Source: an uncultured Candidatus Saccharibacteria bacterium (GTDB lineage: Bacteria; Patescibacteriota; Minisyncoccia; Phycocordibacterales; UBA918). Taken from it: 64,000 bases of DNA. The notes under the pieces are model-generated. The model had not been told where the DNA came from, did no database searches, and saw nothing but the letters and a program-made list of their open reading frames with translations. Numbering within the stretch: the stretch's first letter is position 1; each line of letters opens with the position of its first letter. The stretch lies in assembly GCA_964350645.1 (NCBI GenBank), contig CAYGJY010000002.1, forward strand, positions 33,538-97,537, given 5' to 3'. Of this stretch, positions 2,095 to 42,614 are shown piece after piece. A program made the translations under genes and the position numbers.

Positions 2095-2595
2095 TTATTC
2101 AAATTGTTTTCCAATAATATTACCTGGATTGTTTTTATCAAACAACACTTCACTCCCTTCAAGTAGATAGACATCTTTAATGCCAGCTGCAATCATTGCC
2201 TCCCAGCACGGCTGACAGCACCACCAATGTCCCCAGAGATAGAGATCAGCTCCGCTAGTATCTACCCCTTTTTCTCGAGCTTCATTAATGGCTGATTGTT
2301 CACCATGGTTTTTTGGGTGACAGCCTTCGCATAACTCATACCCTTGTCCCGAAGGTACGTTTTGTTTTATTCGTTCACACTCATGCGTCTTATGGTACTC
2401 ACTACCATTTGCCCCAGCCGCAACAATAGTACCTTCACTGACAATCACTGAAGCATTAGGCATGACCTGATCTAATGAATGTTCTCGAGCAAAATCTTTA
2501 GCAGCCACTATAAACTCATTAGTTGCCGAGACATACTTGATCTCTATTCCTTCAGGTAAATAGGGGTACTCAATTTTTTTACTCATATCTGACAT
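2095..2595 (-). CDS. dCMP deaminase (ComEB-like). The start is probably at the internal Met MSDMSKK
   Basis: Zinc-binding HGEQSAI (H[AG]E) and PCWEAM (PCxxC) motifs of the cytidine/deoxycytidylate deaminase family. Confidence 0.7.
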   Translation of the reverse strand: MSDMSKKIEYPYLPEGIEIKYVSATNEFIVAAKDFAREHSLDQVMPNASVIVSEGTIVAAGANGSEYHKTHECERIKQNVPSGQGYELCEGCHPKNHGEQSAINEAREKGVDTSGADLYLWGHWWCCQPCWEAMIAAGIKDVYLLEGSEVLFDKNNPGNIIGKQFE

Positions 2596-2689
2596 GGGGG
2601 GTATTCTGCTGACATAATGAACAAATTGTACCACAAGAAAAATAAGCTTAAATCTTGGCCCAAATGGGCTTGTCTAGTAGAATTGGGAC

Positions 2690-3538
2690 ATGGAAACACT
2701 CATCAATGGCTATGATATAGCGTATCAAAAAGCACTAAAAGACATCATGGAAAAAGGGATTCGCGAGGTCAACGAGCGTACCGGGCACGAAACCGCTACT
2801 TTGCCCGGCGTCAGCTTCAGCCTTGACCTTGAAACTGACGGTTTTCCGATGCTCTCACTGCGGAAAGTGCCAATCAAGATGTTTGTTGCTGAGCAAGTCT
2901 GGTTTATCGCTGGCTTACGCAAGCCGGCCGACTTCCTTCGTGAATACACCAAAATCTGGGATGATTTCACTAACCCAGGCGACACCGTGACTGTCGCTTA
3001 TGGCTACCGGTGGCGTCATCACTTCGGTCGTGATCAGCTCGGCGACTTGATCACCCTCCTCGAAAACGAACCAAGTTCTCGCCATGGCATCGTGCTGGCG
3101 TGGGACCCGGGCAGCGATGGTCTTGGCGGCACTAAACGCGCTAACGTACCTTGCCCGTTTGGTTTCTCCGTTAACATTGTGGGTGGTCGCCTTCATCTTC
3201 ATAACTTTGTACGCTCCAATGACATGATGCTTGGTAACCCCGCCGATGTCGCTGGCTTTGCGCTTCTGCAGTGTATCTTGGCTGAGCGACTTGGTGTTCG
3301 CCCTGGCATTTACACCCACTCAATCTCAAACGCGCACATCTACGATATTCACTACGAACAAGCCAAGGAGGTTATTAGTCGTACCAGCTCTCAAAAACCA
3401 ATTCATGTGAGCATTCCTGAAAGTGCGTTTGCTCGCGCTGAAGCCAAAGACGGCTCATTAGTTGAGGAAATCGCTGCCAGTATTGAAGACCAGTATGAAC
3501 CACAGGCCGCCATTAAAGGTTTAAAAATTGTTTTATAA
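2690..3538 (+). CDS. thymidylate synthase family enzyme (ThyA-like). Asp186 sits at the position of the invariant Asn177 of E. coli ThyA
   Basis: Aligns along its whole length to E. coli ThyA: ERTGHET/DRTGTGT, EQVWFIAG/ELLWFLQG, AYGYRWRHH/VYGKQWRAW, and catalytic VPC155. The motif MMLGNPADVAGFALL corresponds to VFLGLPFNIASYALL. Confidence 0.75.
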   Translation: METLINGYDIAYQKALKDIMEKGIREVNERTGHETATLPGVSFSLDLETDGFPMLSLRKVPIKMFVAEQVWFIAGLRKPADFLREYTKIWDDFTNPGDTVTVAYGYRWRHHFGRDQLGDLITLLENEPSSRHGIVLAWDPGSDGLGGTKRANVPCPFGFSVNIVGGRLHLHNFVRSNDMMLGNPADVAGFALLQCILAERLGVRPGIYTHSISNAHIYDIHYEQAKEVISRTSSQKPIHVSIPESAFARAEAKDGSLVEEIAASIEDQYEPQAAIKGLKIVL

Positions 3539-3543
3539 TTGTT

Positions 3544-4194
3544 ATGTCAGTTCTCACCAAAGACGAAATCCTTGACCGCATTGATAAAGGCGATATTGCC
3601 ATTGAACCATCTGTCGACCAGTTCCAAATCCAAGCCCACTCGGTTGATCTGCGACTCGGGTTCACCTTTATGCTCCCAAAACAATATGTGTTAACGCAAA
3701 AAGGCCGCGAAGCTCTGCAGATCGACCCTCTCTTAAACCACGGACCGGAATATTTCGATGTCATTGAACTTGAACAAGGTCAATATTTTGAACTACTTCC
3801 TGGTGAGCACGTCCTTGTCTCTAGTCTTGAAAATATTAAAGTCCCAAAAGACCTGATGGCGATTCTCTACCCTCGTTCATCGGTAAACCGTAAAGGGTTA
3901 TCAGTTGACCTAACTGGAATTATTGATTCTGGCTACGAAGGTGTCCTCACCCTCCCAGTACGCAACAATACGTCAGCGCAAATCATCCGCTTGTATCCGG
4001 GAGAACGTTTTTGCCAAGTAGTTTTTGAAGCTCTCACCCATGCAGTTGATGCTCGGCCCAGCCGTTGGCACAAGAAAGATGTCGTTGAAAAGGGTGAAAA
4101 AGAGATTGGTATTGAAATCGAATTGATTCGTGACGGAAAAATAAAAGAGCTCAAAACAGACTACAACGTAATGAAACCTACTGCCGATGTATAA
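3544..4194 (+). CDS. dcd: dCTP deaminase
   Basis: HSVDLRLG and PRSS...G motifs of the Dcd/dUTPase beta-barrel family. Confidence 0.8.
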   Translation: MSVLTKDEILDRIDKGDIAIEPSVDQFQIQAHSVDLRLGFTFMLPKQYVLTQKGREALQIDPLLNHGPEYFDVIELEQGQYFELLPGEHVLVSSLENIKVPKDLMAILYPRSSVNRKGLSVDLTGIIDSGYEGVLTLPVRNNTSAQIIRLYPGERFCQVVFEALTHAVDARPSRWHKKDVVEKGEKEIGIEIELIRDGKIKELKTDYNVMKPTADV

Positions 4195-8567: not shown

Positions 8568-9371
8568 CTATTTCAGTTCGTAACTGATGTTAACCCGAGC
8601 AGTGATAGTGTTCTCTCCAGTAGGTAACTTTGGTGCAATCATACCACCAAAACCACCGTTGTCAGCCGACATCTCCATGGTGGCCATCCTCATTTCAGGC
8701 ATATAACCACCATTAGTATCTTCCCAATAACCAGTAATCCGGCCAAGTTCCATACCCAGGTTTTTAGCTAACTCTTTAGCTTTAGCTCTCGCATCAGCAA
8801 TCGCAGCTTGACGCGCCTGCATCATCAGCTCATCTTCATCATCAATCGTAAACTGCAAGCTACTGATATTGGTAGCCCCTCGTTCACCCACCCCAGAAAT
8901 TAAATCTCCAGAAGCATCGAGGTCACGGACCTTAACGGTCACACTTTGATACACTTCGTAGCCATCAAGCACTTGCTCTCCTCCAGGGCAAACACTGCCA
9001 ACCGGACAAGCAGCTTGTTCCCAGCGATACTTTGGATTGAGATTATAATTATCAGTCTTCACATCCTTCTCTGCTACTCCAGCTTCTTCAAGATACGCCA
9101 GAACAGCATTAATGGCTTTTGCCGACTCTTCCTGTGCGGTAGCCGCATCCTCTCCCTCAGCCTGCACGGAGAATGAGAACGTACCAATATCTGGCTTAGC
9201 TAGCACTTCGCCTTCACCAGCCACCTGAATATTTGCCTCTCCAGTAAAAACGCTTTTTGCTTCTTTGAGAGTTAGATGTGTGTACGCCCCCAATGCCCCA
9301 ACGACTCCAATGAGCGCCAAAGTAAGCAAAACCTGTACATACCCTTTAGACCAAAATGATTGTGTTTCCAT
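8568..9371 (-). CDS. SIMPL-domain (DUF541) periplasmic/secreted protein with an N-terminal TM anchor
   Basis: TM segment VQVLLTLALIGVVGALGAY; composition and length typical of the SIMPL/26 kDa periplasmic immunogenic protein family. Confidence 0.55.
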   Translation of the reverse strand: METQSFWSKGYVQVLLTLALIGVVGALGAYTHLTLKEAKSVFTGEANIQVAGEGEVLAKPDIGTFSFSVQAEGEDAATAQEESAKAINAVLAYLEEAGVAEKDVKTDNYNLNPKYRWEQAACPVGSVCPGGEQVLDGYEVYQSVTVKVRDLDASGDLISGVGERGATNISSLQFTIDDEDELMMQARQAAIADARAKAKELAKNLGMELGRITGYWEDTNGGYMPEMRMATMEMSADNGGFGGMIAPKLPTGENTITARVNISYELK

Positions 9372-41687: not shown

Positions 41688-41760
41688 GCGCGATTAGCTC
41701 AGTTGGTAGAGCAGCGCATTTACACTGCGAAGGTCGGGAGTTCGAGCCTCTCATCGCGCA
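41688..41760 (+). tRNA. tRNA-Val (anticodon TAC). No CCA encoded
   Basis: Acceptor GCGCGAT/ATCGCGC; D-arm GCTCAGTTGGTAGAGC; anticodon loop TTTACAC; T-loop TTCGAGC. Confidence 0.85.
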
Positions 41761-41769
41761 CTACGGTAT

Positions 41770-41807
41770 AGAAAAAGACCTGATTCTAAAGAATCAGGTC
41801 TTTTTCT
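41770..41807 (+). terminator. intrinsic terminator after tRNA-Val (AGAAAAAGACCTGATTC-TAAA-GAATCAGGTCTTTTTCT)
   Basis: Perfect 17-bp stem including A/T runs. Confidence 0.75.
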
Positions 41808-41902
41808 ATAGTAGTAAGCAAACTGCTTTGCTTGCGTACCGTAATGCGGGCCGGAGACATGTTTCTTCTCTTTACTAGTGAAGAAACAGTCGAGGCGGGC
41901 GA

Positions 41903-41949
41903 GAGTACAAACCAAACTAATCACAACGTGATTAGTTTGGTTTGTACTC
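41903..41949. repeat. perfect 21-bp inverted repeat (GAGTACAAACCAAACTAATCA-CAACG-TGATTAGTTTGGTTTGTACTC) with no T-run
   Basis: Read directly; both arms are exact reverse complements. Confidence 0.8.
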
Positions 41950-42059
41950 GTAACCACCCCGAACCATAACGCATCCCTTGACAAAACTCACAATCGTTAT
42001 AATCACCCATCCCCACTTTACGGTCAACCGGAGGAGGAGTATTTTGGAATTAGGGTCAA

Positions 42060-42360
42060 TGACGACCCAGGAAAGGAGTTAATCCAATGCCTACTGGTCC
42101 AACTTGCCCAGTGACACCGAGGATGTTCGGCTTGGGTGCAGATGCACTCCGCTCGGTCTTGTCCGGAAGACTGGTCGAACTACCTCCCGACGCAAGGCGG
42201 GTGATTGCATGGCTGGCCGAACAAGCCAGCTGACACGTGGAATCCCGGCGACTGCACCAAGCAGACGGCCGCCGGGACACCACATTTTTACAAAACGCGT
42301 AGAGCTCGTTTTTATATTTGAGCGAAAGGGGCGCGGCGGCAGCCGCGCCCCTTTCTTAAT
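42060..42360 (+). ncRNA. candidate structured non-coding RNA (unclassified). A GC-rich island ending in the GGGGCGCGGC-GGCA-GCCGCGCCCC hairpin
   Basis: Local GC is clearly above the surroundings. Both-strand ORFs are Arg-rich nonsense. Several nested inverted repeats. Lies between two tRNAs. Class not determined. Confidence 0.3.
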
Positions 42361-42405
42361 CTTCAGTTCCCCTCCCCGCCTAAGTTTGCTATTGTAGTCC
42401 AACTT

Positions 42406-42480
42406 GCCCCTGTAGTTTAATGGATAAAACAGGAGACTTCTAAGCTTTAGATGGGAGTTCGATTCTTCCCGGGGGCACCA
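42406..42480 (+). tRNA. tRNA-Arg (anticodon TCT). The only tRNA in the window with an encoded CCA
   Basis: Acceptor GCCCCTG/CGGGGGC; D-arm GTTT-AATGGATA-AAAC; anticodon loop CTTCTAA identical to E. coli argU; T-loop TTCGATT. The anticodon stem is weak (two G.U pairs and one A/G mismatch). Confidence 0.65.
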
Positions 42481-42614
42481 CGTAGCGAGACCTATCGAGA
42501 GGGGTTAATGCCCCACCAATCTCGATGAGTCTAGCGAATCAACACCACCCGAAATGGTGGTGTTGATTTGTGTATTAGCTTAGGCAAAATAATCTTACTC
42601 TATCTAAAAAGATA

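Follow-up and report, generated by a model that had tools for sequence, protein, structure and literature searches.

What fills the 644 nucleotides (nt) that separate the genes for tRNA-Val(tac) and tRNA-Arg(tct) in a 64,000-nt stretch of contig CAYGJY010000002.1, hereafter called the window? A first-pass annotation had described positions 41813-42405 as a gene-free, hairpin-rich island and had proposed a single unclassified structured RNA of about 590 nt, possibly a housekeeping one. The gene-free and hairpin-rich character of the stretch is borne out by ARAGORN, Rfam and a repeat search, and all the hairpins listed at that time are present between the two tRNAs. Nevertheless, the gap is probably a composite zone of accretion behind tRNA-Val rather than a single gene. 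Its left part, from 41762 to about 41957, is likely to be one copy of an insertion element of about 200 nt that contains no open reading frame (ORF) and is specific to the 3′ ends of tRNA genes in the candidate phyla radiation (CPR, or Patescibacteria).

The structured element and its family

Of the earlier proposal, an unclassified structured element holds for the left part of the interval; the length of 590 nt does not hold. Positions 41813-41955, which belong to no Rfam 15 family and show strong covariation in relatives, form an element core of 143 nt, or of about 196 nt when its terminator is included (41762 to ~41957). The features that matter here, all on the + strand, are the following.

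41688-41761, + strand: tRNA-Val(tac), called by ARAGORN and by Rfam (tRNA, 65.8 bits); its last 5 nt (41757-41761) lie in the strand that pairs with the guide of the element
41762-41812, + strand: left end of the putative inserted unit, from the repeat search; trailer TACGGTA (41762-41768), which pairs with the guide, and a 21-bp terminator hairpin
41813-41955, + strand: core of the tRNA-3′-flank structured element, from the match to covariance model R1 and from covariation
41814-41822 with 41827-41835, + strand: helix 1, loop CTGC
41837-41848, + strand: guide, pairing with 41757-41768 at 11 of 12 positions
41850-41852 with 41894-41896, + strand: P1, followed by a conserved GGA/GA internal loop
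41856-41868 with 41880-41891, + strand: P2, the GTTTCTTC hairpin of the first-pass annotation
41903-41924 with 41928-41949, + strand: P3, a 22-bp hairpin with the 3′ tail GTAACC

The nested inverted repeat GTTTCTTC/GAAGAAAC noted in the first pass was recovered by the repeat search at 41860-41871 with 41877-41888. The perfect hairpin reported at 41903-41949 exists as well, but with 22 bp around a 3-nt loop instead of 21 bp. One hairpin had been overlooked, namely a 21-bp perfect bidirectional terminator right behind tRNA-Val (41767-41787 with 41790-41810), the arms of which lie between an A run and a T run; the element core begins 51 nt past the end of the tRNA.

Further copies are found in related metagenome or genome loci that were compared with the window and are designated by L-numbers (L001, L008, L046 and so on). 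Locus L046 carries a stretch homologous to 41762-41955, with 26 identical bases around the first hairpin. A search for exact matches to the 23-mer of helix 1, AAGCAAACTGCTTTGCTTGCGTA, yielded 73 JGI metagenome contigs and no IMG/VR contig. Model R1, a covariance model with a four-helix consensus derived from the alignment of 20 full-length units, gives 125 hits (103 of them distinct) in 86 sources over ~0.6 Mb of sampled loci, with several copies on some contigs. In the window it matches 41813-41955 over model positions 1-144 with 121.8 bits (E ~1e-37, E-values from R1 being rough), and this is the sole copy there, with the filters off too. Unit length ranges from 120 to 260 nt across the family, and clustering of the copies by genome or by tRNA type yields a mixed picture.

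Covariation in relatives, suggested as a check in the first pass, is found for all four helices of 41813-41955. In an alignment made with MAFFT only (A1), 95.5% of the cells are paired, as compared with 80.2% after shuffling and 29-42% with slid partners, and double-sided changes occur in 18 of 29 pairs. The corresponding values in the alignment of R1 hits (A2) are 95.7%, 69.1% and 34-43%, with double-sided changes in all 29 pairs. On the tRNA-sense strand, G.U pairs outnumber A.C pairs by 65 to 26. Across the family the loop of helix 1 is usually CTGC. Most members have ACTTAGT on both arms of P3, which results in a conserved T.T mismatch.

The element is uncatalogued: it lies outside Rfam 15, and no description of it was found in the literature. 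At the gathering score Rfam 15 reports only tRNAs in the window, and relaxing the cutoff to E <= 10 brings in nothing for the island except look-alikes of terminators or hairpins. The scan that the first pass had recommended left transfer-messenger RNA (tmRNA), RNase P RNA, signal recognition particle (SRP) RNA, 6S RNA and introns all without a match at E <= 10 over 41700-42600, and ARAGORN found no tmRNA. The GTCCGGAAG stretch that had been likened to SRP domain IV is present, but no SRP model matches it even at E <= 10. When related loci were scanned (16 at gathering thresholds and 20 element-bearing ones by E-value), Rfam returned only tRNAs, hairpin noise, LOOT RNA and one group I intron; group II intron models matched neither in the window nor in the 20 element-bearing loci (E <= 0.5).

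The family itself is broader than model R1. Sister modules are seen at the same place behind tRNAs (L043 3059-3191, L045 ~850-1050, L046 ~3000-3160 and many of L049-L121); one has a second hairpin class, GTAACAGTGC-NNNN-GCACTGTTAC, and another a different, 'type B' core, AAGCTTTTS..SAAAAGGTGTACTG..CTGTAAG..

Pairing with the tRNA 3′ end

A tRNA on the same strand lies at most 450 nt upstream of 82 of the 103 distinct copies, and at most 57 nt upstream of 58 of them; 25 anticodon types are represented. In L061, a tRNA gene that was missed by ARAGORN is interrupted at 8810-9090 by a group I intron, which Rfam scores at 59.5 bits; two tandem copies stand behind this tRNA.

The 13 nt directly behind helix 1, which we call the guide, are complementary to the copy's own upstream 95 nt at 11 or more of 13 positions in 63 of 99 copies, as compared with 19 of 969 non-own pairings (2%). 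Two subtypes can be distinguished by the position of the target.

Subtype i (30 copies): target ends 8-9 nt before the tRNA end (28 of 30; two at 10-11 nt); the guide pairs with the T loop and the 3′ strand of the T stem
Subtype ii (16 copies): target ends 4-9 nt past the tRNA end; the guide pairs with the last few tRNA bases and the trailer

The target in subtype ii takes in 3-7 nt of the tRNA end (mostly ..GCAC) and continues across the junction into the left end of the element itself. The window copy, in which the guide pairs with 5 nt of the tRNA and 7 nt of the trailer with one mismatch, belongs to this subtype and may be decaying. Moreover, the bases on the 5′ side of the hairpin pair with those that directly follow the guide target. 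Taken together, the two pairings would make the helix 1 hairpin a branch on a long fold-back, that is, a three-way junction; in the window such a junction is predicted from the guide pairing, the terminator stem and the helix 1 hairpin.

Three other identities were considered for the complementary segment and rejected: an H/ACA-like or C/D-like guide RNA, since there is neither an unpaired target pocket nor any box; a retroviral-type primer-binding site, since the complementarity runs into the trailer and the whole T loop; and a tRNA pseudogene, since the anti-sequence is the complement of the T loop.

Mini-hairpins of the GCGAAGC or RC-GNA-GY type recur in L072, L086, L104, L110, L111 and L115, at the tips of P3 and in the loops between the tRNA end and the anti-sequence. 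The GCGAAGC motif is known as an unusually stable DNA mini-hairpin.

Evidence for insertion

The same tRNA may be empty in one genome and filled in another. Thus, tRNA-Arg(tct) is empty in the window and in L043, where the sequence reads ..GGGGGCACC/AC(G)TAGCGAGAC.., and filled in L046 and L059, where ~190-220 nt with clean boundaries, starting with RAGGTATAAGAAAAA and ending in ..AACTTGACCCCAC, are found behind it. Similarly, tRNA-Leu(gag) is followed by a plain terminator in the window and in L040 (empty) and by a subtype ii copy in L041; in L047 a subtype i copy, a second, exact copy of the tRNA 3′ end and the original terminator follow it in that order. Among the seven tRNAs of the 64-kb window, one carries the element.

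As to the ends, the left end RAGGTATAAGAAAAA plus its stem, homologous to the left end in the window, is found in other copies. In the window copy the ends read TACGGTATAG.. (left) and ..GTAACCAC (right); its right boundary (..AACCAC, ~41957) can be placed provisionally by likeness to ..GACCCCAC of the filled sites. No inverted repeat relates RAGGTATAAGAAAAA at the left end to ..GTGACCAC at the right end.

Immediately past the element, 15 of 58 copies repeat the tRNA 3′ end exactly (16 of 16), and six more do so at 14-15 of 16 positions. This direct repeat is restricted to subtype i copies, and the target duplication differs between the subtypes, being 0-3 nt or ~18 nt long. Copies with a decayed downstream repeat often retain a perfect anti-sequence. 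Tandem units are also observed, three in L111 and two each in L075 and L077. In L001, which stems from the population of the window, the element copy is devoid of the 5′ arm of P2.

In relatives, recombinase genes are found at the 3′ end of the same tRNA-Val(tac). Large serine recombinase genes with Resolvase and Recombinase domains overlap this end or terminate at it in L041 (1711-3351) and L042 (1654-3369). In L008, the closest species representative, tRNA-Val abuts a truncated Recombinase-domain ORF (2582-3607) and there is no island, and L040 has an unannotated ORF at tRNA-Val (2245-3102) whose DNA resembles recombinase 3′ ends. These genes and remnants mark the end of this tRNA gene as a hotspot for integration in the lineage.

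When the neighbours of the element were examined at 74 loci, the only recurrent ones reflected housekeeping synteny or were a YraN-family protein and a ~220-aa HTH_23 protein. The latter has an N-terminal helix-turn-helix of the transposase/resolvase type (HTH_23) and an uncharacterised C-terminal part, and is found at L099 76-756, L045 1222-1878 and six further loci; in L045 it separates tRNA-Val from the acylphosphatase gene, two genes that are direct neighbours in the window. The gene may be selfish or may be a candidate for the partner of the element. A reverse transcriptase (RVT_1, 339 aa) is encoded at L043 29-1048, 1.4 kb past tRNA-Arg, in a locus that shares the tRNA-Val...tRNA-Arg synteny. 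LOOT RNA (RF03000) scores above the gathering threshold at L042 1568-1684 (- strand) and at L084 614-744 (- strand), in one case at the start of a serine recombinase gene.

A possible mode of insertion

The moving form of the element may be a folded single strand, of RNA or of DNA, with the polarity of the tRNA. Its ~13-nt guide would then serve as a splint, bringing the tRNA 3′ end into line with the left end of the element, and the joining would be done by a trans-acting enzyme, not encoded by the element. With the trailer and the bidirectional terminator carried by the unit itself, the host tRNA would still be properly terminated, and the right end, ..GACCAC, would re-create a sequence resembling a tRNA 3′ end, making tandem insertion possible. 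The GCGAAGC-type mini-hairpins and the T.T-mismatched stems hint at a DNA form, while the GGA/GA loop and the G.U excess fit RNA and DNA alike. A further step would be to see here a nucleic-acid-guided system, in which a trans-acting CPR enzyme performs programmable insertion at tRNA ends, be it in the DNA or in the tRNA transcript; we put this forward only tentatively.

Several observations weigh against an insertion element. At the 74 loci, genes for recombinases, transposases or reverse transcriptases are not among its regular neighbours. The anti-sequence of subtype i matches ~21 nt of its own tRNA, and the gain of such a match at a new tRNA is unexplained. The tRNA 3′ end is not repeated beside the window copy (best match 8 of 16), and no empty tRNA-Val(tac) site was found that would fix its right boundary. 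The family was seeded by an exact 23-mer, so that the sequence conservation of helix 1 is overstated. In the guide helix, G.T and A.C mismatches (10 and 12, respectively) show no bias and are uninformative; accordingly, only the core helices bear on which strand folds, and they were aligned on that very strand. Finally, blastn gave no match to the element in phage and plasmid collections, and two degenerate core patterns gave seven hits in viral contigs, none of which fits the model. No vector for horizontal spread is therefore seen.

The variable cassette and the 3′ module

To the right of the element the interval consists of the following features.

41956-41986, + strand: spacer, the same in both population alleles, from the allele alignment; contains TTGACA (41978-41983)
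41987-42236, + strand: strain-variable cassette, allele A; G+C content (GC) ~0.60, Shine-Dalgarno sequence 42070-42078, ORF 42087-42233 (48 aa), hairpin 42211-42230 over the stop codon
42237-42361, + strand: 3′ module, common to both alleles; two hairpins, intrinsic terminator and T-rich tail, fold z = -7.5
42362-42405, + strand: upstream region of tRNA-Arg; CAGTTCC..TTTGCTATTGTA and an extended -10-like TGCTATTGT at 42387-42395
42406-42480, + strand: tRNA-Arg(tct), from ARAGORN and Rfam; the site for the element at its 3′ end is empty in this genome

Short contigs from the same sample series, with an identical acylphosphatase gene, match the window as far as 41986 (..TTGACAAAA); the match resumes at ~42237 (GTGGAATCCC..). 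Between these points L006 has the sequence of the window, allele A, and L001, L002 and L005, from three samples, have an unrelated stretch of ~290 nt, allele B, which is cut at the contig end (42371); L003 stops at the junction. No homology to 41956-42405 was found in the fetched loci outside the same population. The island had been described as richer in GC than its surroundings, which is correct for ~42000-42400 (0.55-0.61, the flanks having 0.38-0.51) and incorrect for its left part (0.44-0.45). Dinucleotide shuffles of the 593-nt interval fold far less well than the interval itself on either strand (z = -9.45 and -9.81; none of 100 shuffles equals it), with the signal sitting at its two ends: z is -7.5 for 42237-42360 and -1.5 for the centre, 41987-42236, and in the fold test neither cassette allele is unusually structured. 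We are inclined to regard 41987-42236 as exchangeable cargo of foreign composition.

The cassette may encode a small protein. In allele A, a Shine-Dalgarno sequence, GGAAAGGAG (42070-42078), is followed by an ATG and an ORF of 48 aa; allele B likewise has a Shine-Dalgarno sequence, an ATG and an ORF of 59 aa. In both alleles a hairpin lies over or near the stop codon, and the GGCTGGC/GCCAGC inverted repeat of the first pass was confirmed at 42211-42217 with 42225-42230. In L046, a third, unrelated ORF with a Shine-Dalgarno sequence occupies the same slot, ahead of a terminator, the TTTGCTATTGTA motif and tRNA-Arg. The earlier verdict that no credible protein gene is present thus calls for a caveat, since the 48-aa ORF (42087-42233) has a good Shine-Dalgarno site, albeit no homologues and non-native codons.

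Going further, one may view 41987-42361 as mainly a small-protein gene, comprising promoter, 5′ untranslated region (UTR), 48-aa ORF, 3′ UTR hairpins and terminator, and hypervariable in the manner of a toxin, immunity or phage-related peptide. This view, which is compatible with an insertion element at the left, would explain why three unrelated sequences in the slot (allele A, Logan allele B and L046) each have a well-spaced Shine-Dalgarno sequence, an ATG and 43-59 codons, and it is in line with the + strand terminator downstream. The codon log-likelihood ratio (LLR) points in the same direction insofar as frame 0 ranks first among the three sense frames in both population alleles (one antisense frame of allele A is higher). 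Its absolute values, however, are -0.065 for the 48-aa ORF and -0.044 for the 59-aa ORF, more than three standard deviations below native 48-codon segments (0.19 +/- 0.08). The peptides are also without homologue: Pfam matches no island ORF, a full-library HMMER search with the 48-aa ORF retrieves only repetitive, multi-stretch matches to proteins of 354-1367 aa, and a word-index search with the 59-aa ORF gives none. In addition, no sigma-70-like + strand promoter was called in the spacer or for the cassette, the spacing between TTGACA and TATAAT being only 14 nt, and the gene caller left the ORF unannotated in L001. On balance we consider a small-protein gene of this extent possible and somewhat doubtful.

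The 3′ module contains a hairpin (42237-42250 with 42270-42283), a small hairpin (42292-42297 with 42307-42312) and the closing GC-rich hairpin that the first pass had detected in part; the latter proves to be 14 bp long (42324-42337 with 42342-42355), and the scan scores it as a + strand intrinsic terminator. The CAGTTCC..TTTGCTATTGTA motif also stands ahead of tRNA-Arg(tct) in L046. Positions 42237-42405 probably combine a terminator module with the tRNA-Arg promoter.

A few further observations were made in this region. A 13-nt perfect direct repeat, GTCCAACTTGCCC, is present at 42097-42109, within the 48-aa ORF, and at 42397-42409, over the 5′ end of tRNA-Arg; the copies are 300 nt apart. 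In L046, the first 19 nt of tRNA-Arg are duplicated 110 nt upstream of the gene. Allele A has a minus-strand promoter-like site (42027-41999; TTGACC, 17 nt, GATTAT) that points left, antisense to the element and toward the bidirectional terminator. Directly 3′ of tRNA-Arg(tct), at 42485-42568 of the window, a hairpin motif, GCGAGACCTATCGAGAGGGGTTAATGCCCCACCAATCTCGATGAGTCTAGC, is followed by a terminator (42537-42568). With compensatory changes, the conserved motif recurs behind tRNA-Arg(tct) in L046 and L059; it may represent a further structured element of small size. Acylphosphatase, an RluD-like protein and L19, which are encoded in the flanks, have their nearest homologues in CPR genomes of the Paceibacterota/Nomurabacteria type, with 60-78% identity, the taxonomic placement being taken from the names carried by the relatives. 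Ribosomal protein L19 (39908-40576) has a long Ala/Glu-rich C-terminal extension, also present in relatives.

Alternative explanations

The element might be a host-beneficial RNA module that is co-transcribed with the tRNA, either as a 3′ trailer for processing, termination or quality control or as a tRNA-like RNA freed by RNase P/Z, and that was spread by selection. The strict co-orientation with tRNAs and closeness to them, the G.U excess on the sense strand and the pairing, which always involves the tRNA 3′ end or the trailer, are consistent with such a role. Some copies (L064, L104 and L111 among them) have no terminator after the tRNA and must be co-transcribed with it, and some version of the element stands behind nearly every tRNA-Val(tac) that is free of a recombinase island. 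The better preservation of the anti-sequence as compared with the downstream repeat even suggests selection for pairing with the live tRNA. In most copies, however, including that of the window, a strong intrinsic terminator lies between tRNA and element, and pairing with the T arm would unfold the tRNA. A beneficial module is also hard to reconcile with its presence at one of seven window tRNAs, with the alternation of filled and empty states at the same tRNA and with the deleted helix in a copy from the same population. Flanking direct repeats and tandem arrays, for their part, are signatures of insertion. We therefore judge a host function of this kind unlikely.

Less likely still, the structures could be fused attL/attR relics of integrase islands at tRNA 3′ ends, comparable to the cis-mobilisable elements that remain once an island has decayed, the hairpins being incidental or protein-binding palindromes. 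Serine recombinase genes do occur at the same tRNA-Val (L041 and L042; truncated in L008 and L040), direct repeats from the T loop to the tRNA 3′ end are typical of the identity blocks of integrase att sites, and tandem arrays would fit accretion. Yet long duplications are not left by serine recombinases, and the sites that recombinases occupy are without the element. No integrase remnant was found within or beside the unit in the window island, and none recurs beside the units at the 74 loci. Moreover, the same core stands behind 25 tRNA species, and its pairing is kept by compensatory changes despite sequence divergence, as expected of folding in a single strand and not of double-stranded palindromes bound by proteins or of relics in decay.

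Lastly, a single housekeeping structured RNA (tmRNA, RNase P RNA, SRP RNA, 6S RNA or a new equivalent) across the whole interval, as envisaged in the first pass on account of a hairpin-rich, gene-free spacer beside tRNAs and in keeping with the strongly negative fold z-scores, is scarcely tenable: neither Rfam at E <= 10 nor ARAGORN finds any of the named families, the repeat stands behind at least 25 kinds of tRNA, L008 as the closest reference genome has no island at this position, nothing beyond the 143-nt element resembles any relative, and a centre that is swapped for unrelated sequence between strains of one population and is not unusually structured excludes one conserved RNA spanning the island.

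Significance and comparison with known systems

If an insertion element is indeed present here, CPR bacteria carry abundant, uncatalogued, tiny structured insertion elements at the 3′ ends of tRNA genes. Such elements would account for many gene-free, hairpin-rich gaps beside tRNAs and should be masked when new housekeeping RNAs are sought. The spacer between tRNA-Val and tRNA-Arg is a hotspot at which strains of one population differ by whole cassettes. The guide, which spans the junction and lies beside a hairpin, would offer a handle on target recognition by a gene-less mobile element, and might lead to a new guided joining enzyme.

The element fails the tested hallmarks of known systems, namely an integrase, terminal inverted repeats and a match to group II intron models. 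A miniature inverted-repeat transposable element was rejected, there being no terminal inverted repeats and no fixed length of the duplication. Rho-independent terminators qualify for 41767-41810 and 42324-42355, both having a GC-rich stem and a T tract, but do not explain the covarying core.

Class C group II introns are likewise structured, sometimes ORF-less, aided by pairing in the choice of site, associated with terminator hairpins and inserted in sense orientation to the upstream gene. The element, in contrast, measures ~140-200 nt rather than more than 600 nt, carries its own terminator, pairs 5′ of the hairpin and has no Rfam match.

The resemblance to the ends of IS200/IS605 elements, and to palindrome-associated transposable elements (PATEs) and REP-like sequences, lies in the absence of terminal inverted repeats, the functional hairpin, the guide bases beside it, the reliance on an enzyme in trans and the mismatched T in the stems. 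Unlike in IS200/IS605, the guide of the element extends over ~13 nt across the junction, a tRNA 3′ end takes the place of the tetra- or pentanucleotide target, and the junction with its three-helix core is unlike the left and right ends (LE/RE). Neither TnpA/TnpB nor a Y1 (HUH) transposase was seen among the recurrent neighbours of the element at the 74 loci.

With the bridge (seek) RNAs of IS110 the element shares a hairpin-interrupted guide in a structured non-coding segment of a mobile element. Its two halves, however, pair contiguously with the same strand, and there is no donor loop and no adjacent gene for a DEDD recombinase.

Integron attC sites and the attP(+) site of CTX phage also depend on structure over sequence, re-create a duplex target by folding back and mark the strand by a branch or bulge. 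The element differs from them in its tRNA targets, in a core more complex than a simple hairpin and in having no shown link to IntI or Xer.

Finally, integrative elements that target the T loop or the 3′ end of tRNA genes, together with their cis-mobilisable derivatives, have neither the small size (120-260 nt), the covarying multi-helix core nor the integrase-free organization of the present element, of which one family serves 25 tRNAs. A reverse complement of the target within the element, interrupted by a hairpin, also sets it apart from them, as does the absence of a long repeat in copies of the window type. It nonetheless resembles them in its insertion site, in the repeat from the T loop to the tRNA end that keeps the tRNA intact in many copies, in tandem accretion and in the use of the very tRNA-Val that is a hotspot for serine-recombinase islands in relatives.

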